From the NCBI GenBank assembly GCA_963789785.1, contig CAWBNC010000031.1, positions 76,041 to 140,040 of the forward strand: a stretch of DNA of 64,000 nt, in the 5' to 3' direction. Position numbers and translations under genes: made by a program. This document shows positions 6,584 to 50,626 of the stretch, one piece after another. Position 1 is the stretch's first letter; every line of letters begins with the position of its first letter. The stretch comes from an uncultured Alphaproteobacteria bacterium (lineage in GTDB: Bacteria > Pseudomonadota > Alphaproteobacteria > Rhodospirillales > Defluviicoccaceae). Under the pieces are notes generated by a model. It saw only the letters and a program-made list of their open reading frames with translations, was not told the origin of the DNA and made no database searches.

Positions 6584-8617
6584 GTGAGCACGAAATCGCC
6601 ATCGCCACCGCGCTGCGCGGCGCTCGTCGGCCCGTACCTCAGCGGCAAGACCTCGCTGCTGGAAAGCATCCTGTCGCTCACCGGGGCGACGACCCGCAAG
6701 GGCAGCGTCCGCGACGGCAACACCGTCGGCGACGCCTCGGCTGAAGCCCGCGCGCGGCAGATGAGCACCGAGCTCAATGTGGCTGTGACCGAGTATCTTG
6801 ACGAAACCTGGACGTTTCTCGACTGCCCAGGCAACATCGAGCTGATTCAGGAGTCCTACAGCGCCCTCCTTGCCGCCGATATCGCTGTCCTGGTCTGCGA
6901 GCCGGCGCCGGAGAAGATCCTGACGGTGGCGCCGCTGCTTCGCTTTCTCGACGAGAACGGCATCCCCCACATCGTCTTCATCAACAAGATGGACCTGGCA
7001 GAGACAAGCGTGCGCGGCACGCTCGAGGCACTGCAGGGGCTGTCGACCCGGCCGCTGGTCTTGCGCGAGATCCCGCTGCGCGAGACGCAGGAGGAGATCA
7101 CCGGCTTCGTCGACCTCGTCAGCGAGCGCGCCTTCCGCTGGACGCCGGGTCAGCGCTCGGAGCTCATCTCCGTGCCCGAGGAGGCGACCGAGCAGGAGCA
7201 GGAAGCGCGCCGGGAAATGCTGGAAGCGATCGCCGACTTCGACGACGATCTGCTCGAGAAATTGCTCGAGGACGTGGTCCCTTCGACCGACGAGATCTAC
7301 GCCGGGCTGAGCCGCGACCTCGCCCAGGATCTGATCGTCCCGGTGTTCTTCGGTTGCGCCGAGTCGATGCACGGCGTCAACCGGCTGATGAAGGCGCTGC
7401 GTCATGAGGCGCCCGAACCGGCCGCAACCGCGGCGCGCCTCGACGTTCCCGACGCGGACGAGCCGTGCGCGCGGATCTTCAGGAGCGTTCATGCCGCCCA
7501 CACCGGCAAGCTGTCCTATGTGCGGGTCTGGCGCGGCGAGATCACCGACGGCACGACCCTGAACGGCGAGCGGGTGAGCGGCGTTAGCCGGCTGGTCGGC
7601 GCCCGGCTGGAGAAGAGGGCCGGCGCGGAAGCCGGCGAAGTGGTCGCACTTGGCCGCCTCGACAACGCCACGACCGGAGCCCTGCTGTCGCCGAGCGGCA
7701 AACTCACCGGCCCGCCGTGGCCGGCGCCGCTGAAGCCGCTGTTCGCGCTGGCGGTGCATGCCGAGCAGCGCGCCGATGAAGTGAAGCTCACCAGCGCTCT
7801 CGCCCGCCTTGTCGAGGAAGACCCGTCGCTGTCCTTCGGGCACGATCCGGACACCGGCGAGATGCTGCTGTGGGGCCAGGGCGAGATGCACTTATCGATC
7901 GCGCTGGACCGGCTGCGCAACCGCTACAACGTCCAGATGGTCTCGCACCGGCCGCAGATCCCCTACAAAGAGACGATCCGCGCCGCGGTCAGTCAGCACG
8001 CCCGGCACAAGAAACAGTCCGGCGGTCACGGCGAGTTCGGCGATGTCAACATCGACATCAAGCCGCTCCCGCGCGGCAGCGGCTTCGCTTTTTCCGACTC
8101 GATCACCGGCGGCGTTGTTCCCAAGCAGTACATCCCGGCGGTCGACGCCGGGGTGCGCGAATACATGAACCGCGGCCCCCTCGGCTTTTCCGTGGTCGAT
8201 GTCGCCGTGACCTTGACCGACGGCCAGTTCCACACCGTCGACAGCTCCGACATGGCCTTCCGCAAGGCGGCCCAGCAGGCAATGCGCGAGGGCATGCCGA
8301 AGTGCAATCCGGTCATCCTCGAGCCGATTTTCAACTTCAAGATTTCGGTGCCGTCGGAGTTCACCTCGCGGATACAGCGGCTGGTCAGCGGCCGGCGCGG
8401 CCAGATCCTCGGCTTCCAGGCGCGCACCGACTGGCAGGGCTGGGACGAGGTCTCGGTGCTGCTGCCCCAGGCGGAGATGTACGACCTGATCATCGAGCTG
8501 CGCTCGGCGACGCTGGGGGTCGGCACCTTCGAGTGGAGCTTCGATCACCTGCAGGAGCTGACCGGCCGACTCGCCGACGACGTCATCGCTCAGCGCGCGG
8601 CGCAGCAGGCGTCCTGA
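6584..8617 (+). CDS. elongation factor G-like GTPase (EF-G paralogue)
   Basis: GTG at 6584 is preceded by GGGAGAA. GTPase motifs are G1 GPYLSGKT, G3 DCPG and G4 NKMD. EF-G domains II-V can be recognised (GKLSYVRVWRGEI, HGEFGDV, KPVILEPI-like NPVILEPIF). Confidence 0.85.
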   Translation: MSTKSPSPPRCAALVGPYLSGKTSLLESILSLTGATTRKGSVRDGNTVGDASAEARARQMSTELNVAVTEYLDETWTFLDCPGNIELIQESYSALLAADIAVLVCEPAPEKILTVAPLLRFLDENGIPHIVFINKMDLAETSVRGTLEALQGLSTRPLVLREIPLRETQEEITGFVDLVSERAFRWTPGQRSELISVPEEATEQEQEARREMLEAIADFDDDLLEKLLEDVVPSTDEIYAGLSRDLAQDLIVPVFFGCAESMHGVNRLMKALRHEAPEPAATAARLDVPDADEPCARIFRSVHAAHTGKLSYVRVWRGEITDGTTLNGERVSGVSRLVGARLEKRAGAEAGEVVALGRLDNATTGALLSPSGKLTGPPWPAPLKPLFALAVHAEQRADEVKLTSALARLVEEDPSLSFGHDPDTGEMLLWGQGEMHLSIALDRLRNRYNVQMVSHRPQIPYKETIRAAVSQHARHKKQSGGHGEFGDVNIDIKPLPRGSGFAFSDSITGGVVPKQYIPAVDAGVREYMNRGPLGFSVVDVAVTLTDGQFHTVDSSDMAFRKAAQQAMREGMPKCNPVILEPIFNFKISVPSEFTSRIQRLVSGRRGQILGFQARTDWQGWDEVSVLLPQAEMYDLIIELRSATLGVGTFEWSFDHLQELTGRLADDVIAQRAAQQAS

Positions 8618-39768: not shown

Positions 39769-42399
39769 ATGGCTGTCCAGGTTGTTGAAGCCCGAGACCC
39801 ACCCGGTGGCGCGGGCGGGGGCGACGACACCGGGTCCAGCGATGAGCGCTTTGCCCGGCTGAAGCGGTTCGGTCCGCCGGCCGCGGCGGCGCTGGTCTTC
39901 GCCCTGACGCTGTCCGCGATCGACCGTCTGCTCGGCCACCTTAACTACCACATCGTGATGGCCGACCTGCGCGCCCTGCCGGCATCGGCAATGGCGCTCG
40001 CGATCGCCTTTACCGCCGGGAGCTTCCTCTGCCTGACCGGCTACGACTGGTCGGCGGTTCGCTATATCGGCAAGAGACTGCCCTATCACCGGATCGCTCT
40101 CGGATCCTTCGCCGGCTACGCCATCTCCAACACGATCGGCTTCAGCCTGCTCTCCGGGCCATCGGTGCGCTACCGGATCTACGCCGCCGCCGGGCTCGAG
40201 GCGGTCGATGTGGCGCGGGTCGCTGTCGTATCCGGGCTAGCGTTCCACGTCGGAGTCTCGGCGGTGGCTGGCTTCGCCATGACGCTGCGTCCGCACGCCA
40301 TCGCTGCGATCATCGCGGTTCCGGCGCCGGCCTTGCGGACGCTGGGGCTGGTCATGTTGTTCGCCGTCGCGGCCCTGATCGCCTTCGTCTTTATCCGCCG
40401 CCGGCCGTTGCGGCTATGGCGATGGACGGTCGAGCTGCCCAGCGGTCCGCTGGTCATGGGTCAGCTCGTCCTGTCGGTGATCGAGATCGCCTCCGCCGGC
40501 TCGGTGCTGTTCGTCCTGCTGCCGACCGGCGATATCACCTGGTTCGCGTTCATCACCTTCTACTGTCTGGCCATCGTCGCCGGGGTGCTCAGCCACGTGC
40601 CCGGCGGCTTCGGCGTATTCGAAAGCGTAATGCTGTTCCTCCTTGCCGGTTCGGTGCCGGCGGAAACGACGACGGCGGCGCTTGTTGCCTATCGCTCCAT
40701 CTACAATCTCTTTCCACTTCTGCTCGCCGCGATACTCCTCGCCGCCGACGAAGCGATCCGCAAGGTGGCGCCGGCGCTGGAGGCGGCGCGCCAGATCGGC
40801 GCCTGGAGCACGCGCCTCATCCCGACAATCATGGGCACGGTCGTCTTCATTGCCGGCGCCGTCATGATCGCCTCGTCGGCGACGCCGGCGGTGCCGCGAC
40901 GGATGGTATTCCTTTCAAACACAGTGCCCCTGTCGCTGGTCGAGACGGCGCATTTTCTGTCCAGCATTGCCGGCTTTCTCCTGCTCATTCTCTCGCGCGG
41001 GCTGTTTCGCCGTCTCAACGGCGCCTACTGGCTGGCCCTGTTCATGCTGCCGGTCGCCGCGGCGACGTCCTTCGCCAAGGGTTGGGACTACGAGGAAGCA
41101 ACCCTCATGATGGTGGTGCTCGTCGCGCTGCTGCCGTGCCGCCGCGAGTTCTACCGGCAGACGTCGCTCCTCGATGCGCCGTTCACCTGGGGCTGGCTGC
41201 TCGCCATCGCCGCCGTCGTTGGGTCGATGGTCTGGCTCATCACCTTTTCCTACAAGCACGTCGACTACGCCGAAAACCTCTGGTGGGAGTTTGCATTCAA
41301 GGATGACGCGCCCCGCTCTCTCCGGGCGCTCCTGGCCGTGCTTCTGGCCGGCACCGCCGCCGGCCTCGCCCGCCTGCTTCGCCCACCGCGCCACGCGCCC
41401 GATCTTCCCGTCAAGGCGGAGATCGCGCGTGCCGGCGCGATCATCGCGGCGCAGGACCGGACCTACGCCAACCTGGCGCTGCTGGGTGACAAGGCATTGC
41501 TTTTCAGCGAATCCGGCGATGCCTTCATCATGTATGGCGTCCGCGCACGAAGTTGGGTGGCCATGGGTGATCCGGTCGGCCCGCAGCAATCGTGGGCCGA
41601 TCTGGCCTGGACCTTCCGCGAGCTCGCCGATCGCGTCGGGGCCCGCATCGCCTTCTATCAGGCGTCACCCGAGGCGCTGCCGCTCTATCTCGATCTCGGT
41701 CTCGTGCCGCTGAAGATTGGAGAGGAGGCGATCATCGATCTCACCGCCTTCTCCCTGCAGGGCCGCAGGCGGCGGGAGGACCGCAATGTCCTCAGCCGCG
41801 GCGAGCGCGAGGGGCTCGACATGGAGGTGCTGCCGACCGGCGCCGCGACGCCGCTGCTGGCGGAGTTGGAGGCGATTTCCGATGACTGGCTGCAGACCAA
41901 GAACACGCGCGAGAAGCGGTTTGCCCTGGGAGCGTTCTCCGCCGCCATCGTCGAGCGCTCACCGGTTGCCGTCGCCCGCCTGCACGGCCGGGCGGTCGCC
42001 TTCGCCTCCCTGATGACGACGCCGACAAAAGCGGAAGCCTCGATCGACCTGATGCGCTACAGCAGCGAGGCGCCCCGCTACACGATGCAGTTCCTTTTTC
42101 TGCGGCTGATGCTGCACCTTAAAGAGGCCGGATTTGCAACATTCACTCTTGGCATGGCGCCCATGTCGGGGATGGAGGGCCATCCGCTCGCGCCGGTGTG
42201 GCACAAGGTCGGCAGATTCCTTTTTCAGCACGGCGAGCACTTCTACAACTTCCAGGGCCTGCGCGGGTTCAAGGACAAGTTCGACCCCGTCTGGCAGCCG
42301 CGCTACCTCGCCGCTCCCGGCGGACTGAGCCCGCTGATCGTCATGACGGATGTCGGCGCTCTGGTCGGCGGCGGTTTCAAGGGCATGATCGCGCGATGA
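39769..42399 (+). CDS. mprF: bifunctional lysylphosphatidylglycerol flippase/synthetase
   Basis: 876-aa ORF with a polytopic N-terminal flippase half and a C-terminal aminoacyl-PG synthase domain (FALGAF, DLMRY, FRGLRGFKDKFDPVWQPRYL). Confidence 0.9.
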   Translation: MAVQVVEARDPPGGAGGGDDTGSSDERFARLKRFGPPAAAALVFALTLSAIDRLLGHLNYHIVMADLRALPASAMALAIAFTAGSFLCLTGYDWSAVRYIGKRLPYHRIALGSFAGYAISNTIGFSLLSGPSVRYRIYAAAGLEAVDVARVAVVSGLAFHVGVSAVAGFAMTLRPHAIAAIIAVPAPALRTLGLVMLFAVAALIAFVFIRRRPLRLWRWTVELPSGPLVMGQLVLSVIEIASAGSVLFVLLPTGDITWFAFITFYCLAIVAGVLSHVPGGFGVFESVMLFLLAGSVPAETTTAALVAYRSIYNLFPLLLAAILLAADEAIRKVAPALEAARQIGAWSTRLIPTIMGTVVFIAGAVMIASSATPAVPRRMVFLSNTVPLSLVETAHFLSSIAGFLLLILSRGLFRRLNGAYWLALFMLPVAAATSFAKGWDYEEATLMMVVLVALLPCRREFYRQTSLLDAPFTWGWLLAIAAVVGSMVWLITFSYKHVDYAENLWWEFAFKDDAPRSLRALLAVLLAGTAAGLARLLRPPRHAPDLPVKAEIARAGAIIAAQDRTYANLALLGDKALLFSESGDAFIMYGVRARSWVAMGDPVGPQQSWADLAWTFRELADRVGARIAFYQASPEALPLYLDLGLVPLKIGEEAIIDLTAFSLQGRRRREDRNVLSRGEREGLDMEVLPTGAATPLLAELEAISDDWLQTKNTREKRFALGAFSAAIVERSPVAVARLHGRAVAFASLMTTPTKAEASIDLMRYSSEAPRYTMQFLFLRLMLHLKEAGFATFTLGMAPMSGMEGHPLAPVWHKVGRFLFQHGEHFYNFQGLRGFKDKFDPVWQPRYLAAPGGLSPLIVMTDVGALVGGGFKGMIAR

Positions 42400-43870
42400 C
42401 AAGGGCGTCTACGCTCGCGGCTGTCCTCTCGCTGATCCTGATGCTGATCGTGATCTTCAACGTGGTCATATCGCCGCCGGAGACGAAGCCCGTCAGTATC
42501 AGCGGCCATCCTGCGCTCGCACCGGCCCATGTCCTTGCGCCACCAGTGCCGGCGCGTGGCGCCGTCGTGATGTTCTCCGACCGGCAGGGCTGGAACGCGG
42601 CGATGGATGCGGCGGCCAAGGCCATCGCCGAGGCCGGCGAAATCGTCGTCGGTTTCGATACGCCGCGAGTGCTTGTCGAAGCAGCGCGAACCCCGGATGG
42701 ATGCCTCGACCTGTCCGAGGCCATCGCCGACGCGACGGCCGACGCACGTTCGCGGCGGCGAGGAGGATGGGACGGCAGGGCGGCCCGGCATTGCGCCGGT
42801 TCTGGCGGGAACGGGAGACGGCGCAACCCTGGCCTATGCCATCCTCGCCCAGTCGCCGCAGGGTCGGTTCGCGGGCGTCGTCCCGGTCTCGTTCACCGGC
42901 GATCTGGCAAGCGCCGCACCGCTGTGCGCCGGCGCCCCGAGCGAGCCGGCGGGGACAGGCGTTTTCCATTACCGGCCGGCGACAATGCTGCCGGGCTGGC
43001 TCGCGATCGTCAGCGAACATCCGGACGCATCGAGGATCGCTGCCTATGCCGCGGCTGCCGGAGCCGCGGTCATTGCCGTGCCCGGCAACTTCGACTTCCC
43101 GGCCTCTGTCATCACCGTCCTGGCGCAAGCGCACGAGCCGGCAGACGTTTCCGACGACGGCGGCGTCGGCGCATTGCCTCTCGTGCCCCTGCCGGTGGAT
43201 AAGCCCGGCGGGTTAGATGGCCGTCATCTATTCCGGCGACGGCGGCTGGCGCGATGCCGACAAGCGGCTCGGCGAGGCGCTGCAGTTGGACGGTGTGCCC
43301 GTCGTCGGCGTCGACAGCCTGCGCTACTTCTGGCGCGAAAAAACGCCCGAGCAGGTGGCGGCGGACCTGGCGATGATTCTGGGCTACTACCCGCAGCTCT
43401 GGGGCACGCCAAAGGTGATCCTCATCGGCTATTCGTTCGGCGCCGATGTTCTCCCGTTCGCCGTCAACAGGCAGACGCCCGCGGCGCGAACGAGCATCGT
43501 CCAGATATCGCTCCTCGGGCTCGCCGAACGCGCCGACTTCGCAATCCAGATCGCCGGCTGGCTGGGGGCGGGGCCAAGCGATGCCGCGCTTCCCGTCCTG
43601 CCCGAAATCGCCCGCCTCGATCTCTCCCGCGTGCAGTGCTTTTACGGTCAGGAAGAGGAGGACAGCCTCTGCCCGACCCAGGCCCTGTCCGGCGCCGAGG
43701 TCATCGCCATGCCGGGCGGTCATCATTTCGACGGTGAATACGAGAAGATCGCGAAACGCATCATCGACGGCGCCCGAAGCCGATCCGGGTGCCGTCGCTT
43801 CAGGTGCCGGATTGGCGGCGGTGCACTGAGAAAGGGAGGGGATTTCGCGGCGGGAGGACGCTTTGCTTAG
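42396..43870 (+). pseudogene. acvB: AcvB/VirJ-family protein (lysyl-PG hydrolase family), two +1 frame breaks
   Basis: ATGA overlap with the mprF stop. The pieces are 42396..~42760 (signal/anchor TLAAVLSLILMLIVIF), the frame of ORF 42607..43737 (IAPVLAGTGDGATLAYAIL), and 43217..43870 (AVIYSGDGGWRDADK, LIGYSFGADVLPF, GGHHFDGEY). The second break is at 43214-43217. The first lies somewhere in 42725-42790. Confidence 0.75.
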
Positions 43871-45255
43871 AAGCCGCCGCCGGTGTGAAAATCACCGCCG
43901 CCGCCGCCACCAGCCGCCGCCACCACGCCGCCGCCTCCGCCAGCACCGCCGCCGCCCCAGCCGCCGCCTGGAAACTGGGTCGGGCGGTGATGACGGCCGA
44001 TCTCGCCCCAGAAGGTGTCGCGGCCGATGGCGCCGCTGAGCACCTGTCCCAGCATGGTGCCGAGCATCGCGCCGGCGGCGCTGTCGAAGGTGCCGCGGTT
44101 GTAACCGCGCCGGCGGTAGTCGCGTCGCAGCGCGCCGATCTCTTCCAGCTCGCGGCGCTGCTGTTCCTGCTGCGCCTTGGCCTGATCGAGCGCGGCCACG
44201 ATCTTCTGCTCTTCGGCCTCGAGCGTTTCGAGGTCCTGGACGACCGCGTCGTCCTCGGCGGCGGCCGTGCGCCGGGCCTGATCGCGCAAGGCCCGCAGTT
44301 CCTGTCGGCGAAGGGCCTCGACGATGACCGCGGTCGCGGCACGGGTGGCGGGATCCTCGCCGGCCAGCAGGTGGGCGCGCCGCTCCTGGGCCTCGACGAG
44401 CGCTTTGCCCTTTGCCTCGATCCGGTCGTCGATCGTATCGACTTCAGCCTCGGCCTCCTCGAGGTCGGCGTGGCGCGCGGCCGCGTCGCCCTCGTCCAGC
44501 GCGGCCTTTTCCATCGCCGCGAGCTTCCCGGTTTCGATGTTGGCCTGGGCGTGTTGGCGCCCGGCATGGTCCTGAAGCCGGCGGGGGATCTCGTTGAGCA
44601 TGGCGAAGCTGGCGCGCGCCTTGTCGTAGCCGGTGAACCGGGCGATCCAGCGATCGACCATGCGCGCAAGGAAGCCGGCGGAGTAGGCCGAGGTGCCATA
44701 GCCGCGCGCCCAGAGATACTGGAACAGCTCGTCCGCCTCGTAAGGTTTGCCCTTATCGCGCCGATCGGCTTCGGCCTGCCGGGTCTTGCTCTCGGCGGCG
44801 GCCGCGGTCTCTGCGGCCTTCCGCGCCGCCTCCTGTTGCGCGCGATACGGCTCGGTCGCCGCCAGACGTCGGCGCACGTCCTCGGCCGCCGCGTCGAAGG
44901 CCGCCTGGCGTTGGCCGACGAGATCGGTCGCCGTCGTCCGGTCCGCGCGAAGGGCCTGCACCTCGCGCTCGAGCGCGCCAACCTCCGCATCGATCTCGGC
45001 CGACCCTGCCTCCTGCCGTTGCTTCGCGGCACGGACATTCGCGTCCAGCGCCGCGAGGCTCCGGATCAGCGGATCTTCCTCAAGCAGCCCGAGGCGCACC
45101 TGCGCCAGCCTGCGGTAGGCCTCGCTCTCCTCCGTCCTGACCTGGAGCAGGCGCGCGCTCAGGTCGTTCATCTGCCCATGTAGCGCGTCGGTGCGCCGGT
45201 GGGCGTCCCCGAACGCGTCGTCCATCGGGTCGATCAGCTGCGAAGCGCTATACAT
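43867..45255 (-). CDS. coiled-coil protein with C-terminal glycine zipper and poly-Gly tail (function unknown)
   Basis: 462 aa from ATG 45255 (TTG 45261 is also possible). It is Ala/Glu/Arg-rich and heptad-like throughout, with an aromatic block PYEADELFQYLWARGYGTSAYSAGFLARMVDRWIARFTGYD. It then has GAMLGTMLGQVLSGAIG and the tail GGGWGGGGAGGGGGVVAAAGGGGGGDFHTGGGF. It lies 6 nt downstream of the preceding gene. Confidence 0.7.
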   Translation of the reverse strand: MYSASQLIDPMDDAFGDAHRRTDALHGQMNDLSARLLQVRTEESEAYRRLAQVRLGLLEEDPLIRSLAALDANVRAAKQRQEAGSAEIDAEVGALEREVQALRADRTTATDLVGQRQAAFDAAAEDVRRRLAATEPYRAQQEAARKAAETAAAAESKTRQAEADRRDKGKPYEADELFQYLWARGYGTSAYSAGFLARMVDRWIARFTGYDKARASFAMLNEIPRRLQDHAGRQHAQANIETGKLAAMEKAALDEGDAAARHADLEEAEAEVDTIDDRIEAKGKALVEAQERRAHLLAGEDPATRAATAVIVEALRRQELRALRDQARRTAAAEDDAVVQDLETLEAEEQKIVAALDQAKAQQEQQRRELEEIGALRRDYRRRGYNRGTFDSAAGAMLGTMLGQVLSGAIGRDTFWGEIGRHHRPTQFPGGGWGGGGAGGGGGVVAAAGGGGGGDFHTGGGF

Positions 45256-45261
45256 CGCCAA

Positions 45262-46230
45262 TTACCACTCGAGGATGACGCCGCCGGGCGTCGGAAAGTT
45301 GAACTTCGGCTCGAGGTGGCCGACCTGCTTCTCGCCGAAGCGATTGTTCTGGATGATCCCGTCGTCCTGCTTGTCCGCCTTGACGCGGTTGAAGGTCTGC
45401 TCATCGACGCGCATCCCGAACACGCTCGCCCGCTCCGTCTTGTTGTCCTCCTCGCTGTGCACCACGAGTTCGACCGGGCGACCGTCCTGATCGACGGCTT
45501 CAACCAGGATGTAGTAGTTGCGCGCATTCGGATTGAGCCGCGGCACCCGCCATACCCCGCTCTGCTGGCCCGGCCGGACCAGGATCCGCAGGGTATAGCT
45601 CTGCTCGAGACGCTTGCGCAGATCGACCAGCGCGCCCAGCTTTTCGCGCGCCGCCGGCGCATCGTCGGCGGCCAGAGCGACATCGACCGCGGCGGCAAGA
45701 TCGCGCGCCTTCTGCGTCGCAGCCGGCTCCTTGCTCAGCGCCACTACACGTTCGAGCTCGGTGCGCGTCTGCTGCGGGATGGTCTGGGCGAGCTCCCGCT
45801 GCTCCGCGGCAACGCGGCGCTCTTCGGGAAGCTTGACGCCGAAGTACCAACCGCCGGCCACAGCCGCGAGGAGGCCGACGGCAACGGCCGCGACCTTCAT
45901 CAGCCGGTTGCGCCGCACCCAGAGCAGCGCCAGCGACCGCCTTATCCCGGCCGGCGGCGGCCGGTAGACGAACCGGTCCTCGCGGAGCGCCGCGACACCC
46001 TCGTCAAGGATTCGCTCGGGAACCTCGATCCCCTGAGCGGCGTAGAGCCGGCGCAGCCGCTCCTTCATCTCGGCATCGCGCACGTCGGATCCAAGCTCGC
46101 GTTCCACCAGCACGTCGGCGTGGCGGAGGTTGTCGACAACGTCCATCGCCAGCATGACGTCGTCGAGCGGCGGGGCGGCCTGCCCGTTGCGCGGCTGGTC
46201 CTGCCCGGATGCGGCCCCGGATGCTGCCAT
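45262..46230 (-). CDS. single-pass membrane protein with a beta-rich C-terminal domain (function unknown)
   Basis: 322 aa. One TM helix LMKVAAVAVGLLAAVAGGWYFGV is followed by a helical linker and a compact domain YTLRILVRPGQQSGVWRVPRLNPNARNYYILVEAVDQDGRPVELVVHSEEDN. It lies 11 nt downstream of the preceding gene. Confidence 0.7.
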   Translation of the reverse strand: MAASGAASGQDQPRNGQAAPPLDDVMLAMDVVDNLRHADVLVERELGSDVRDAEMKERLRRLYAAQGIEVPERILDEGVAALREDRFVYRPPPAGIRRSLALLWVRRNRLMKVAAVAVGLLAAVAGGWYFGVKLPEERRVAAEQRELAQTIPQQTRTELERVVALSKEPAATQKARDLAAAVDVALAADDAPAAREKLGALVDLRKRLEQSYTLRILVRPGQQSGVWRVPRLNPNARNYYILVEAVDQDGRPVELVVHSEEDNKTERASVFGMRVDEQTFNRVKADKQDDGIIQNNRFGEKQVGHLEPKFNFPTPGGVILEW

Positions 46231-46241
46231 CGTCGCGCCGC

Positions 46242-47426
46242 TCAGCTGCCGGCCGTCGCCAGTTCCGCGCTTCTCTGCGCCAGGCGGGCCATACGGCGTT
46301 TGCCGTCTTCGACGGCGCGGCCGATCTCCTGCGCATTCTGGGTGCTCAGCGTGCGCATCTCGTCGATGATCTCGGTAGACCGCTCCTGGTAGTTGACCAC
46401 AGAATCGACCAGCTTCTTCACCAACTCGGCGCGGATCGTCGGCCCGTAGCCGGCCTTGAGCGCCTCTTCCTGGATCTTGCCGCCGATCTCTGAAAGCGTA
46501 TCCAGGCTTTGGCTGATCCCGTCCTTCATCGTGTTCAGCGTCTTCGTGCTCTCGTTCAGGCCGTGCAGGCCGGTGAACGAGGCGCTGAGCGCCGTCAGCA
46601 CCAATTCGTTGGTGGAAAAGAAGCTCACCGACTGCTGATACACCCGCTCCTTGGCGCTCGTCGTCTGCATCAGCCGGGCCATGATCACCTCAGAGGTGTT
46701 GTAGCCTACGGTCAGGTTGTCGCTAAGATCCTTGGCGATCTGGTAGCGGCGCTCCTCGTTCTGCAGCGCCCGCAGCTTCTCGTCGCGGGCAAGTTCGAGC
46801 CTGGCCCGCTCCGCCGGCTCGACCTGTCCCGCCTGCTCAACGACGCCCGACGCGGTATCGACCTCGGTGCGGGCCGCGCCGAGCTTCTTTTCCGCCTCCT
46901 TCAGAACCTCGAAAGCCATGACTTCGGCTTCCTTCAGCGCACCGCGAAAATCGCGGTAGGCTTCGAGGATGAGGTGCTCGCGCTCGAACTGGTCCTTCGT
47001 CGCCGCCGCGACGCCGAGGTAGGTCTTCTTGATGCCGTCGAACCGGGTGGCGATGTCGCCGCGGGTCGCCTTCTGCCAGATGTTCGCCAGCCGCTCGAAG
47101 GTGTCGATTTTGCCGTCCTCGACCTGATCGACCATCTGCTTGGCGTCGTCGCGAATGGAGTTGAACGATTTGGCAATGTCGTTGTAACGCTCGCCGACAT
47201 CCATGGCGCTGATCTGTTCGCGCACGACCTCGTTGAACAGCGACATCTGGTCCAGGGTCCGCGCGATCAGGGCGATGCGTTCCTCGTCGAGATCGGAGAT
47301 CTGGTTGAGCAGCGAAACGACGGGGGCCACCTCCTCGCGCTTGTCCGGGACAAGACCCAGATCGCGAAGCGTGCCCAATGCCTTGTCGAGATACTTCATC
47401 GGTTGGCTGACGGCGACCTCGCCCAT
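46242..47426 (-). CDS. TelA/KlaA-like all-helical protein (toxic anion resistance family resemblance, tentative)
   Basis: 394 aa. ATG 47426 is preceded by AAGGA with a 6-nt spacer. The protein is uniformly helical and heptad-rich. Its length and C-terminal pattern (FFSTNELVLTAL...GYGPTIRAELVKKLVDSVVNYQERSTEIIDEMR) loosely recall the TelA profile. The assignment is by eye only. Confidence 0.7.
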   Translation of the reverse strand: MGEVAVSQPMKYLDKALGTLRDLGLVPDKREEVAPVVSLLNQISDLDEERIALIARTLDQMSLFNEVVREQISAMDVGERYNDIAKSFNSIRDDAKQMVDQVEDGKIDTFERLANIWQKATRGDIATRFDGIKKTYLGVAAATKDQFEREHLILEAYRDFRGALKEAEVMAFEVLKEAEKKLGAARTEVDTASGVVEQAGQVEPAERARLELARDEKLRALQNEERRYQIAKDLSDNLTVGYNTSEVIMARLMQTTSAKERVYQQSVSFFSTNELVLTALSASFTGLHGLNESTKTLNTMKDGISQSLDTLSEIGGKIQEEALKAGYGPTIRAELVKKLVDSVVNYQERSTEIIDEMRTLSTQNAQEIGRAVEDGKRRMARLAQRSAELATAGS

Positions 47427-47686
47427 GGCTCAAATCCTTCCCGCTGAACAGGTTTTTAGGCCGACGCAAGCATCGGCCGCCTCCGCTACGCGCCGCAGGC
47501 TAGTAGAGATCACTTTGCCGGTGGAAGAAAGCACTCGTTCTTTCCGCCGTTCTCCGGCTGCGCGCCTTTGTCTGAAGGGCCGAGGGAACGGCGCGCGCCC
47601 ACCATTGCCTTAGCGCAGGACTGGGCCTGTTCCAGGTGAGGCAGTAGTCTGATCCATCGGAGCAAACGATTAAGAGGGAGCGAGAG

Positions 47687-48196
47687 ATGTTCAAGATCGC
47701 AGCGGCCAGCCTGCTGGCCATCACCGCCATCGGCGGCGCTCAGGCCGCCGACATGGCCGGCGCAACCGCCAAGGCAGCGTTGCAGGGACCCGATGGCAAA
47801 TCCGTCGGCCAGGCGACGCTCGAGTCCACGCCCCACGGTGTGCTCGTCCACGTCCGGGCCGAGGGCCTGTCGCCCGGTCCGCATGGCATTCATCTGCACG
47901 CCGTCGGCGCCTGCTCTCCGGACTTCAAGGCGGCCGGCGGCCACATCAAGACCTCCGGCAACGAGCACGGCCTGCGCAACCCCAAGGGTCCGGAAGCCGG
48001 CGACCTGCCGAACCTCTATGCCGGCGCCGATGGCCGGGCCGAGGCGGAATACTTCACCACCCTGGTGGACATGAAGACGGTGCTCGACAATGACGGCTCG
48101 GCAGTCGTGATCCACGCTCAGCCCGACGACCAGATGACCCAGCCCATCGGCGGCTCCGGCGATCGCGTGGCCTGCGGTGTCATCAATGCCTCCTAG
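47687..48196 (+). CDS. sodC: periplasmic Cu/Zn superoxide dismutase
   Basis: Signal peptide MFKIAAASLLAITAIGGAQA, metal ligands HGIHLHAVGAC and GGHIKTSGNEHG, and C-terminal GDRVACGVI. Confidence 0.93.
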   Translation: MFKIAAASLLAITAIGGAQAADMAGATAKAALQGPDGKSVGQATLESTPHGVLVHVRAEGLSPGPHGIHLHAVGACSPDFKAAGGHIKTSGNEHGLRNPKGPEAGDLPNLYAGADGRAEAEYFTTLVDMKTVLDNDGSAVVIHAQPDDQMTQPIGGSGDRVACGVINAS

Positions 48197-48594
48197 CCGC
48201 GGCAAGACCATAGCGCTCGGAAAGCCGGCGGCGGCCTGCCCTCTGGGTTAGGCCGTCGTCGTACGCCGGACAAGCGGCTGCCGCCGATGACACCACAGGA
48301 TGTGAGGCTGGCCTGTAGAGATACGACATTTTGTGCGCGGGACTCCGAATCGCTCATGCCGATTCGGCCGACGCGGCCTCCTCGCGAGTTGCCAGCGAGG
48401 ACCGGAGGCTCTGCGACGGCACTTTGGCCCAGGCCGTAAGAATCCATTTTTGCAATGCCTTCTGGCGATATCTTCAGGCGACCGCATGGCCGGTCCGGAA
48501 ATTCTGTATTTCACGTCTGTTGGAGCGGCCATTATGCCGGAGACGAACGCGGGACCGGGGTCCGGCCCCAGGCCCGGAGGCAACAGGAAGTCGG

Positions 48595-49446
48595 ATGGAT
48601 TTGGCAGCTGAGGCGCACCCTGCGGAGCAGAGCGAGAGACCGCCTTTTCAACTCCGCGGCGGCGCCTACACCATGATCGTGCTGAGGCTGATCGAGCCGA
48701 AGCACCCGGCATTCTACCAGATGCTGATGGCAAAGGTTGCCCAGGCGCCGGGTTTCTTCATCGACGCGCCGGTGGTCCTCGACCTGCAGGATCTTGCCGA
48801 TGCGCCTCCCTTCAATATGGCCGAACTCCGCCGCCGTCTGCGCCAGCACCGGCTGATGGCGTTCGGCGTCCAGAACGCCACCGAGGAACAGAACCAGATC
48901 GCGATCAACGCCGGCATGGTCGTTCTCCCGCCCGGCCGGCAGGCGCCGATCCGCGCGACACCTCGGCCGGCGCCGCCCGCCGAGGCATCCGGGCCGGCGA
49001 CTGCCGGTACCGCTGATACGGGCACTCCCGAACCGGATGGCCATGCTGCGGCTCATCCTGCGACGGATCCCGGCGCGGAGGCCGCGCCGCTGGATCAGGA
49101 GCATACGGCCGAGCCGGCGGTGAGCCTTGTCGTTGCCCAGCCGGTCCGGTCGGGACGGCAGATCTACGCCCAGGGCGGCGACCTGATCGTTCTGGCGTCG
49201 ATCAGCCCCGGCGCCGAGCTCATCGCCGACGGTCACATTCACGTCTATGGCTCCCTGCGCGGGCGGGCCCTGGCGGGCATCGCCGGCAATACCGAGGCGC
49301 GCATCTTCTGTCGCAGCCTGGAAGCCGAACTGGTCTCGATCGGCGGCTACTGGCGCGTCCGCGACGACATCCCGGAGGATCTGATCGGCAAGCCCGCGCA
49401 GATCCACCTGGAGGGCGAGCACGTCGTCATCGAGTCCTTGACCTGA
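48595..49446 (+). CDS. minC: septum site-determining protein MinC
   Basis: In-frame ATG at 48595. The N-terminal domain has FQLRGGAYTMIVLRL, followed by a Pro/Ala linker and a C-terminal beta-helix VRSGRQIYAQGGDLIVLASISPGAELIADGHIHVYG. Confidence 0.88.
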   Translation: MDLAAEAHPAEQSERPPFQLRGGAYTMIVLRLIEPKHPAFYQMLMAKVAQAPGFFIDAPVVLDLQDLADAPPFNMAELRRRLRQHRLMAFGVQNATEEQNQIAINAGMVVLPPGRQAPIRATPRPAPPAEASGPATAGTADTGTPEPDGHAAAHPATDPGAEAAPLDQEHTAEPAVSLVVAQPVRSGRQIYAQGGDLIVLASISPGAELIADGHIHVYGSLRGRALAGIAGNTEARIFCRSLEAELVSIGGYWRVRDDIPEDLIGKPAQIHLEGEHVVIESLT

Positions 49447-49523
49447 ACATCGAACAGCCGGTTCATCGATGCCTCTTCACTTCGCGCCCACTCACAAACC
49501 ACCACTGACCGTTGGAGGAACAC

Positions 49524-50339
49524 TTGTCTAAAGTCATCGTCATGACATCGGGCAAGGGCGGGGTCGGCAAGACCACGTCTAGCGCAGCGTTTGCCGCGGG
49601 TCTCGCCCTCAGAGGCTACAGGACGGTCGTCATCGACTTCGACGTCGGCCTGCGCAACCTCGACCTGATCATGGGCTGCGAGCGCCGGGTCGTCTTCGAC
49701 TTCATCAACGTCATCAACGGCGACGCCCGACTCAATCAGGCCCTGATCAAGGACAAGCGGGTCGAGAACCTCGCCATCCTGCCGACCAGCCAGACCCGGG
49801 ACAAGGAGGCGCTGACCCGCGAAGGCGTCGGCAAGGTCATCGACGAGCTGAGGGAGACGTTCGACTACATCATCTGCGACAGCCCCGCCGGCATCGAGCG
49901 CGGTGCGCTGATGGCGCTCTATTTCGCCGACGAGGCAGTCATCGTCACCAACCCCGAGATCTCAAGCGTCCGCGACAGCGACCGGATCCTGGGCGTTCTG
50001 CAAAGCAAGTCGCGCCGCGCCGAGGAAGGCCTCGATCCGGTGAAGGAGCACCTGCTTCTGACCCGCTACGACACCGCTCGGGTCGCCCGTGGCGAGATGC
50101 TCAAGGTCGAGGACGTGCTCGAGATCCTGGCCATCCCGCTGATCGGGATCATCCCCGAGAGCCAGACCGTGCTGAAGGCTTCCAATACCGGCACACCGGT
50201 CATCCTCGACGCCCAGTCGCCCGCGGCGGCCGGCTACAGCGAGGCGGTCGGCCGGTTTCTCGGCGAGACGATCGAGGTGCGCTTTCCCAAGCAGCAGCGT
50301 CGGGGCCTGTTCCAGCGTCTGCTCTGGAGGACCGCATGA
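49524..50339 (+). CDS. minD: septum site-determining ATPase MinD
   Basis: TTG at 49524, 4 nt after GGAGGA. It has the deviant Walker A SGKGGVGKTT and a C-terminal amphipathic helix RGLFQRLLW. Confidence 0.95.
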   Translation: MSKVIVMTSGKGGVGKTTSSAAFAAGLALRGYRTVVIDFDVGLRNLDLIMGCERRVVFDFINVINGDARLNQALIKDKRVENLAILPTSQTRDKEALTREGVGKVIDELRETFDYIICDSPAGIERGALMALYFADEAVIVTNPEISSVRDSDRILGVLQSKSRRAEEGLDPVKEHLLLTRYDTARVARGEMLKVEDVLEILAIPLIGIIPESQTVLKASNTGTPVILDAQSPAAAGYSEAVGRFLGETIEVRFPKQQRRGLFQRLLWRTA

Positions 50340-50626
50340 GCATCATGAATTACTTCCGCTCCCGGCCGAAGGCGTCAGCCGATCAGGCCAAGGAGCGGCT
50401 GCAGATCCTGCTCGCCCATGAGCGAGCCGGCTCGACCAGACCGGACTATCTCCCGCGCATGCAGGCCGAGCTCATGCAGGTGATCGCCCGGTACATCGAC
50501 ATCGACGAGGATATGATCTCGGTCGAGTTCGAGAACTCGGGAACCGTGTCCACGATCGAAGTCAACATCGAGCTGCCGACCGAGCTGGTCATGCAGGGAT
50601 CGGCGGCGCTTGCCGTCGCCTCCTGA
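50336..50626 (+). CDS. minE: cell division topological specificity factor MinE
   Basis: 96-aa ORF. ATGA overlap with minD. The motif KERLQILLAHER is present. Confidence 0.92.
   Translation: MSIMNYFRSRPKASADQAKERLQILLAHERAGSTRPDYLPRMQAELMQVIARYIDIDEDMISVEFENSGTVSTIEVNIELPTELVMQGSAALAVAS

Follow-up and report, generated by a model that had tools for sequence, protein, structure and literature searches.

A conserved three-gene unit without a recognised enzyme joins a DUF6384 membrane protein to a helical protein of probably TelA-like fold in double-membrane bacteria

What three adjoining genes that encode no recognisable enzyme do for their hosts is the question raised by this locus. The genes, here called g1, g2 and g3, lie on the minus strand of a 64,000-nucleotide stretch of DNA from an uncultured alphaproteobacterium of the Defluviicoccaceae (contig CAWBNC010000031.1, positions 76,041 to 140,040; the window), where a prediction made from the letters alone (the original prediction) had picked them out as an undescribed system. 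In this study, we have combined a genome scan, family and profile searches and structure models to follow up that proposal. Our results demonstrate that the trio is a genuine gene unit without an enzyme, its three frames intact, on one strand and closely packed. We found no description of such a system in the databases and literature searched, and Pfam, NCBIfam, PADLOC, PHROGs, PDB sequence and Foldseek searches place the trio in no characterised system, as had been anticipated. Arguing by analogy, our preferred reading, to which we give a probability of about 0.45, is that the trio would form a non-enzymatic inner-membrane scaffold that organises or protects the membrane, for the cell or for a resident plasmid or phage. 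The three genes are as follows:

47426-46242, minus strand: g1, ATG start, 394 amino acids (open reading frame list)
46230-45262, minus strand: g2, ATG start, 322 amino acids (open reading frame list)
45255-43867, minus strand: g3, ATG start, 462 amino acids; the longest open reading frame, from a TTG at 45261, has 464 amino acids

The length of 462 amino acids for g3 is taken as right because homologues begin at the ATG position (MYSG.../MLSG...). The intergenic gaps are 11 nucleotides between g1 and g2 and 6 nucleotides between g2 and g3, all three genes are co-oriented and intact, and a clear Shine-Dalgarno sequence is found only at g1 (GGAAGGA, 7 nucleotides upstream of the start), an arrangement described from the letters that the open reading frame list and the sequence bear out. 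The intact frames had also been taken as a sign of purifying selection. Compared with L099, a Rhodospirillales metagenome-assembled genome (MAG) that is a close relative with the same local gene order, the ratio of nonsynonymous to synonymous substitution rates (dN/dS) is 0.10 for g1, 0.17 for g2 and 0.21 for g3, with protein identities of 94%, 85% and 81%, and the flanking genes have similar ratios (MinD 0.06, MprF 0.12, SodC 0.12). All three trio genes are under purifying selection. The adjacent virJ/acvB gene (42396-43870, plus strand) is split over three reading frames by two frameshifts near 42,760 and 43,205, either as a true pseudogene or through assembly indel errors; its L099 orthologue is intact (473 amino acids), so that, at least as far as this neighbour goes, the contrast drawn between intact and broken genes holds. 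By sequence, no cleavable signal-peptide-like N-terminus is seen in g1, g2 or g3. The prediction had noted no catalytic motif, and in agreement with it no catalytic family was detected in Pfam, NCBIfam, PADLOC, 53 g3 homologues or sub-domain scans at E<=10.

How widely the three genes travel together was addressed with one genome per species, about 185,000 species in all, using the pattern FF[SGA]TNExV[LF]T drawn from a 14-sequence g1 alignment. Relatives of g1 occur in at least 459 of these species genomes, with a patchy distribution. For locus statistics we used the best 80 of the at least 459 loci; 69 of the 80 have enough downstream DNA, and g1-g2-g3 stand in the same order and on the same strand in every one of these 69, with small or overlapping junctions in most loci. 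Synteny, which the original prediction had set as its own test, thus reaches beyond close relatives in all 69 complete loci. The trio spans at least 10 phyla-level lineages (among its hosts are Alpha- and Gammaproteobacteria, Nitrospirota, Desulfuromonadales, Deinococcota, Pirellulales of the Planctomycetota, Omnitrophota, Terriglobia of the Acidobacteriota, Chthoniobacteraceae of the Verrucomicrobiota, Bdellovibrio of the Bdellovibrionota, Rickettsiales and Micavibrio), and the 80 loci and the named database matches come from double-membrane lineages only. Mean pairwise identity, taken over 74 trios, falls from 0.67 for g1 to 0.45 for g2 and 0.36 for g3, and the distance matrices of the three proteins correlate with each other (Spearman 0.55-0.66). 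Since identity does not track taxonomy, horizontal transfer is suggested.

The linkage also holds among remote relatives. In Roseomonas, in Methylobacterium, on a 4.4-Mb metagenomic contig and in a gammaproteobacterial MAG, the gene for a distant g3 homologue likewise completes a trio of g1, a DUF6384 gene (the family of g2) and g3, with unrelated flanks, and at 28-30% g1 identity the linkage to DUF6384 and to a third protein of 470-490 amino acids persists. At locus L102 (1006-5306), g1 (about 28% identical) is divergent from a DUF6384 gene (481 amino acids) and a gene for a 490-amino-acid protein; because g1 is inverted there, trio linkage survives rearrangement. A Holliday-junction-endonuclease-like gene and a helix-turn-helix gene follow that trio. 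At locus L004, on a metagenomic contig of 4.4 Mb, a gene for a 98-amino-acid antibiotic biosynthesis monooxygenase-like (ABM) protein (6745-7041) lies between g1 and DUF6384, the sole insertion seen in the trio. No fourth conserved gene was found, no family being common to more than 7 of the 80 loci within 3.5 kb. Apparent g1-g2 and g2-g3 fusions (P0288, P0356 and P0455), considered as evidence of contact, were rejected as out-of-frame read-throughs. These are frameshifted assemblies with Arg/Pro-rich junk segments, and they could mislead domain-fusion analyses.

The clearest family assignment in the trio is that of g2, a full-length DUF6384 protein (PF19911; 388.8 bits against a gathering score of 25 bits, E 2.1e-116, profile positions 3-308 of 308). 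Its N- and C-terminal pieces each match DUF6384 separately, and the domain is present in all g2 homologues retrieved. The Pfam entry describes a family of unknown function, and DUF6384 is not mentioned in the literature searched. A charged head, one transmembrane helix and a beta-rich outer domain had been predicted for g2, and both the hydropathy and an AlphaFold2 (AF2) model built with database homologues (predicted local distance difference test, pLDDT, 77) agree with this layout:

45946..46173, minus strand: g2 head, residues 20-95, predicted cytoplasmic, helical and conserved, LDDVMLAMDVVDTLRH...YAxQGIEV...RFxY, with invariant or near-invariant columns
45841..45912, minus strand: g2 transmembrane helix, residues ~107-130, 19-residue Kyte-Doolittle hydropathy 1.84 (family median 2.11)
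45265..45603, minus strand: g2 beta-rich domain, residues 210-322, conserved and predicted periplasmic, YxLRIV...NYYLIVEA...DDGIIQ...W-COOH

The head, charged at its N-terminus, is modelled with helices at residues 23-65 and 72-83 at modest pLDDT, and it is probably a docking site for g1 or g3. An Arg-rich stretch precedes the transmembrane helix, which by the positive-inside rule argues for an N-in topology. The beta domain has strands between residues 212 and 301 in the model, and its terminal Trp is invariant. Between the transmembrane helix and this domain lies a helical spacer that is poorly conserved and variable in length, both end domains being conserved; g2 proteins with a longer spacer have 476 amino acids on a plasmid, 440 in a phage and 403-481 in the distant versions. 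In a Foldseek search of the PDB the whole-chain g2 model has no neighbour (best E 0.14), and the g2 family profile has no relative among PDB sequences. The couplers of the RodZ and TolA/TonB type are single-pass proteins with a cytoplasmic head, a transmembrane helix, a periplasmic spacer and a C-terminal domain. The likeness of g2 to RodZ (of RodZ-MreB), TolA and TonB is an analogy of layout only (cytoplasmic head, one transmembrane helix, variable periplasmic spacer, small C-terminal domain), with no sequence or fold match in Pfam or PDB searches.

The g1 protein is of a different kind, large, helical and slowly evolving. The AF2 model is all-helical, as had been claimed from the sequence, and elongated (pLDDT 78; predicted template modelling score, pTM, 0.71), and g1 is cytoplasmic as judged by its sequence. 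Two of its features matter here:

Residues 125-198, 204-291 and 333-393 of g1: long helices in the AF2 model, in addition to an N-terminal helical region
46437..46643, minus strand: g1 residues 262-330, the most conserved stretch (profile 0.82-0.88), containing FFSTNELVLTALSASFTGL and the scan motif FF[SGA]TNExV[LF]T

The segment FFSTNELVLTALSASFTGL is the most hydrophobic of g1 (hydropathy 1.03), and residues 289-326 form a conserved loop at one end of the bundle, modelled at a pLDDT below 50. Residues 262-330 are a candidate tip for binding the membrane or a partner. Databases hold more than 8000 g1 relatives, the best 120 of these being at least 73% identical, and the family falls into 613 clusters at 50% identity. 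No match to g1 was found in Pfam, NCBIfam, PADLOC or PHROGs, and 66 diverse g1 homologues gave only scattered coiled-coil noise against the family libraries. Neither single-protein nor profile searches of PDB sequences found a relative of the trio proteins. No Pfam match to PspA_IM30 was seen for g1 or g3 at E<=1, and the PspA/Vipp1 fold is absent from the top 50 PDB matches of the g1 model.

The original prediction had compared g1 with TelA, and this proposal stood in part. The Pfam TelA family (PF05816, gathering score 30 bits) does not match g1 at E<=1, TelA is not among the families listed for the 66 diverse homologues, while KlaB and KlaA score 290 and 41 bits in a search of the same kind; g1 is therefore outside the TelA family as Pfam defines it. 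The fold tells in favour of the comparison. In a Foldseek search of BFVD with the g1 model, phage TelA proteins are three of the top five matches and three of the best four that are named, a comparison of model with model at modest scores (best template modelling, TM, score 0.43-0.46):

Lactobacillus phage Semele 'tellurite resistance protein': BFVD match to g1, E 6.1e-4, TM-score 0.43/0.46
Escherichia phage VEcB 'toxic anion resistance protein': BFVD match to g1, E 7.7e-4
phiPsa397 TelA protein: BFVD match to g1, E 8.9e-3

When the g1 alignment was compared by hhalign with an alignment of 10 TelA sequences (KlaB, KlaA and eight phage TelA proteins), 284 columns were collinear (E 3.3e-4, with a weak probability of 38%). 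The g1 family against KlaB alone gave 0.6%, and against two helical-protein controls 1.1% and 0.2% over about 20 columns. The fold of g1 is thus probably TelA-like, though distantly so, and g1 may perhaps be a very distant relative of TelA.

The comparison extends to the operons. With TelA/KlaB (PF05816; the klaA-klaB(telA)-klaC(telB) genes of RK2 kilA, and xpaC-telA of Firmicutes) g1 shares a size of about 380-400 amino acids and an all-helical long bundle. Both belong to small enzyme-free operons with an adjoining gene for a membrane protein, and both occur on chromosomes, conjugative plasmids and jumbo phages. The partners, however, are unrelated, g2 having no match to the XpaC family in Pfam. 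KlaC of pBS228 matches g2 and g3 only at E>=4.3 in BLASTP and the g2 family at 0.6% in hhalign, so that the trio has no partner of the KlaC/TelB type, and homology with RK2 kilA beyond TelA was rejected on the ground that KlaC is unrelated to g2 and g3. Conservation differs as well: identity to KlaB within the TelA set is 20-28%, whereas g1 keeps about 67% across phyla. TelA has been proposed to form structures under the membrane that block the entry of phages or xenobiotics, and both TelA and Ter systems have been tied to the inhibition of plasmid fertility and to resistance against phages (PMC7824862). In Listeria, telA plays a part in the resistance to nisin and to antibiotics that act on the cell wall (PMC11765107), and in E. 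faecium the deletion of xpaC, which encodes the membrane partner, redistributes phospholipid microdomains and causes daptomycin sensitivity, only when telA is intact (PMC6811118).

The third protein, g3, is the fastest evolving of the trio, its homologues being 26-78% identical. It has no curated family in Pfam, NCBIfam, PADLOC or PHROGs, and no Pfam family was found in the 53 homologues, which gave scattered coiled-coil noise only. From the N-terminus it consists of a coiled coil, a central aromatic domain, a second helical region, an amphipathic helix and a Gly-rich tail:

44560..44787, minus strand: g3 core, residues 157-232, EKGKPYEADxLFxYLWxRGYGTxxY...D.W.A...EIPxRLxxH
44020..44082, minus strand: the 'glycine-zipper' helix of g3, residues 392-412, hydropathy 1.27 here, carrying GAMLGTMLGQVLSGAIG
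43870..43974, minus strand: g3 tail, residues 428-462, low-complexity and Gly-rich, with a conserved F-x-T-G-G-G-F-COOH end, here DFHTGGGF

About 400 residues of coiled coil had been predicted, and this was an overestimate, as only residues 1-140 and ~337-392 show a strong heptad pattern. In the alignment of the core, K157, K168, F178, Y180, L181, W182, Y191, D201, A205, L220 and P224 are invariant, and a T..DD..V motif is also conserved in the family. The glycine zipper did not hold up across the family: the hydropathy of the helix has a median of 1.13 (range 0.5-1.8), it often contains charged residues, and the glycines do not keep to a GxxxG spacing. The glycine tail ending in DFHTGGGF is present as described, and its terminal peptide is conserved, with F456, T458, G459, G460 and F462 invariant or near-invariant and a C-terminus of the [RKST]TGGxF type in about 70 of 78 genome g3 homologues. 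To judge by these residues, the tail is probably a flexible tether with a docking tip. We take a Gly-rich tail with an aromatic end to resemble the tails of TPM-domain (YgcG-type) membrane proteins, perhaps as a shared motif. Several g3 homologues are labelled 'YgcG' or 'SbcC/SMC ATPase' by the Joint Genome Institute (JGI).

Copies of the trio outside chromosomes bear on what it might be for. By tblastn, g1 relatives occur on 11 plasmids, among them seven Pseudomonas megaplasmids and the megaplasmid of M. extorquens AM1. The 398-kb conjugative plasmid of P. aeruginosa PA83 (L088, 287826-291738) has the full trio, namely a g1-like gene, a DUF6384 gene and a true g3 homologue (hhalign 99.85%) in which the g3 core is recognisable. 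RefSeq calls the g1 homologue of this megaplasmid 'merozoite surface protein 3b', and a g1 copy on a Bradyrhizobium plasmid goes under the name 'cell surface protein'; neither label looks right for a protein that lacks a signal peptide. In the lytic Yersinia jumbo phage phiR1-37 (L090, 5974-9805), genes g190-g192 are an AT-rich and highly diverged trio. The product of g190 is 43% identical to g1, and that of g191 is a DUF6384 protein (E 5e-26) with a faint holin-family match (E 0.002, below cut-off). That of g192 has the layout of g3 (core motif, here faint, a hydrophobic helix and a low-complexity Ser/Gly tail ending SDSF), its profile similarity not being significant. In the supplementary transcript table of a study of this phage, the RNA sequencing means of g190-g192 are about 14,000-42,000 over early, middle and late infection, with no temporal change, and are among the highest of the values compared (PMC4848604). 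A search of INPHARED and a pattern scan of IMG/VR found the trio in no phage besides phiR1-37, and the trio is therefore no common phage gene set.

This carriage on conjugative megaplasmids and on a lytic jumbo phage that expresses the genes strongly from early infection would fit a dedicated barrier against phages or plasmids that works by excluding superinfection, inhibiting fertility or aborting infection, and that blocks or senses DNA entry or collapses the membrane. The links of TelA and Ter to phage resistance and fertility inhibition (PMC7824862) point the same way, as do the patchy spread (at least 459 of about 185,000 species) and unrelated flanks, which are typical of mobile accessory modules, and the suggestion of horizontal transfer from identities that do not track taxonomy. 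We nevertheless consider such a barrier rather unlikely. PADLOC-DB v2 gave only weak matches to the trio (E 0.003-0.044), in low-complexity or transmembrane regions, and the best, to LeoBC at E 0.003, lies over coiled-coil and Gly-rich sequence and is not credible. Flanking genes are metabolic or housekeeping genes and not defence islands, no nuclease, nucleoside triphosphatase (NTPase), other effector or sensor domain was found, and only one phage in INPHARED and IMG/VR carries the trio. With about 67% identity across phyla and a dN/dS of 0.10, g1 is also unlike fast-evolving defence genes. The abortive-infection role suggested by the original prediction loses ground for the same reasons, having no credible PADLOC match, no defence-island context and a slowly evolving g1.

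A lytic or toxic function is a second idea prompted by the faint holin match of g191, and by the fold of g1. The g1 model has no PDB match at E<0.01 in Foldseek, and ClyA-family toxins dominate the list (E 0.024-0.2, TM-score 0.14-0.26), which holds MakA, ClyA, SmhB, Hbl-B, AhlB/C, NheA and XaxB. The ClyA/Hbl/Nhe/Ahl/Mak proteins share with g1 an elongated three-to-five-helix bundle and a conserved, partly hydrophobic tip, and the g1 tip is likewise conserved and mildly hydrophobic. The trio could then be an alpha-helical pore-forming toxin of the ClyA/Hbl type or a holin-like lysis system in which g1 inserts in a target membrane. We regard this as very improbable. All toxin matches of g1 lie above E 0.01 at those low TM-scores, there is neither a signal peptide nor a secretion system, g1 is cytoplasmic by its sequence, and the partner architectures differ. 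Every component of the tripartite toxins AhlABC and SmhABC has the ClyA fold, whereas g2 and g3 do not. The trio is moreover conserved in free-living, non-pathogenic lineages, and high phage expression throughout infection, early included, is not that of a lysis effector.

The surroundings of the trio in the window had been read as an envelope-defence neighbourhood on the strength of an RND pump, MprF-AcvB and SodC, and here the comparison between loci corrects the picture. Only in this lineage does the trio have MprF, VirJ, SodC and MinCDE as neighbours; flanks elsewhere are unrelated, and the neighbourhood is lineage-specific, as no neighbour is common to more than 7 of the 80 loci. No Ter genes (TerB, TerC, TerD, vWA) are among the neighbours of the trio in the window and no Ter domain is in the gene tables of loci L001-L006, L099, L102 and L103; with no conserved neighbour in 80 loci, it follows that no Ter genes accompany the trio, unlike in the Ter cluster. 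Regulation was sought in the region upstream of g1:

47427..47686, minus strand: g1-sodC intergenic region, 260 nucleotides, with the g1 Shine-Dalgarno sequence and presumed promoter; sodC is divergent

No sigma-70-like site and no terminator stood above shuffle expectation, and no Rfam element was found (the one match, to M23 at E 0.14, below the gathering score, was treated as chance). Among 81 loci, motifs for EcfG, sigmaE, sigma32 and sigma54 are absent upstream of g1, one weak match of a generic extracytoplasmic function (ECF) type being seen at L053.

Just past sodC (47687-48196) lies a complete minC-minD-minE set (48331-50626, plus strand). The longest MinC open reading frame has 371 amino acids, with an N-terminus about 80 amino acids longer than the 289-amino-acid call in L099, and the true start is probably internal. 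That the operon adjoins minCDE in this lineage lends some colour to a cytoskeleton-like positioning system, with g1 as a polymer under the membrane and g2 as a periplasmic coupler in the style of RodZ-MreB, serving growth, division or polarity, not stress. The extreme conservation of g1, uniform along its length as in polymer-forming proteins, the RodZ/TolA-like layout of g2 and the long coiled-coil segments of g3 would suit such a role. Yet minCDE adjacency is not kept elsewhere, the distribution is patchy with carriage on plasmids and a phage, no NTPase is present for polymer dynamics, and no known bacterial cytoskeletal protein is among the top 50 Foldseek matches of g1; we therefore hold this explanation to be improbable.

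We return to the inner-membrane scaffold, the reading that we prefer. In this model, the conserved head of g2 would recruit or anchor g1 at the inner face of the membrane, where the mildly hydrophobic tip of g1 (residues 262-330) may touch the bilayer or a partner. Judging from its conserved segments, g3 would bridge or regulate the assembly through its aromatic core and C-terminal docking peptide, and the spacer and beta domain of g2 would reach a periplasmic target. The complex would organise or stiffen the inner membrane and, by analogy with TelA systems, could protect the cell, plasmid or phage from agents that damage the envelope or from competitors that enter. What the data show is the gene unit with its conservation and co-inheritance, the domain layout and the likeness of fold; we infer the contacts between the proteins, the scaffold, its role in protection and the sensing or repair of membrane damage that was first proposed.

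Several points weigh against this scaffold. The combination of very high g1 conservation and patchy spread is unusual for stress or defence accessory genes, and with no stress-sigma motif in 81 loci, nothing ties the operon to an envelope-stress regulon. The helix of g3 once called a zipper is best read as amphipathic and not as a conserved transmembrane segment, given its marginal hydropathy and charged residues, and it is no clear membrane anchor. The beta domain of g2 has no recognisable fold relative, having been searched within the whole chain only. The link to TelA is weak because there is no Pfam match, the hhalign probability is 38%, no PDB match reaches E<0.01 and helical bundles cross-match easily; and since the mechanism of TelA is itself not established, the analogy carries limited weight.

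A bolder form of the same idea, which we consider possible and appreciably less likely than the scaffold as such, is a membrane-skeleton system of double-membrane bacteria that has been captured by megaplasmids and a jumbo phage. Here g1 would assemble into an ordered lattice or filament beneath the inner membrane, the spacer and beta domain of g2 would connect this lattice across the periplasm with the wall or the outer membrane, and g3 would act as a cross-linker by way of a Gly-rich tail that serves as a flexible tether and ends in a docking peptide. What the megaplasmids and the phage would gain is a host envelope that stays intact or shut to competitors. If this were true, the roughly 67% identity of g1 across phyla would be due to lattice contacts, and the trio would represent a novel class of scaffold for bacterial membranes, kin to TelA only by ancient descent.

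In conclusion, our results place the trio in a large and coherent body of functional dark matter, not among lineage-specific oddities, as g1 and g3 have no curated family and g2 has only DUF6384. For DUF6384, what is new is the topology of head, transmembrane helix, spacer and beta domain, and a steady partnership with the g1 and g3 families. As g1, the core of the trio, probably shares the fold, and possibly the ancestry, of TelA, the trio is not categorically new. Nevertheless, the mechanism of TelA-type proteins has been unresolved since the work on RK2 kilA and tellurite resistance, and the trio offers a clean, three-part and enzyme-free version of such a system, of defined topology and with putative interfaces that are strongly conserved. 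It is present in culturable hosts, on the megaplasmid of Methylorubrum extorquens AM1, in Roseomonas, Devosia and Mesorhizobium and on P. aeruginosa megaplasmids, and phiR1-37 is a tractable phage in which it is highly expressed, so that the role of TelA-like proteins under the membrane is made testable.

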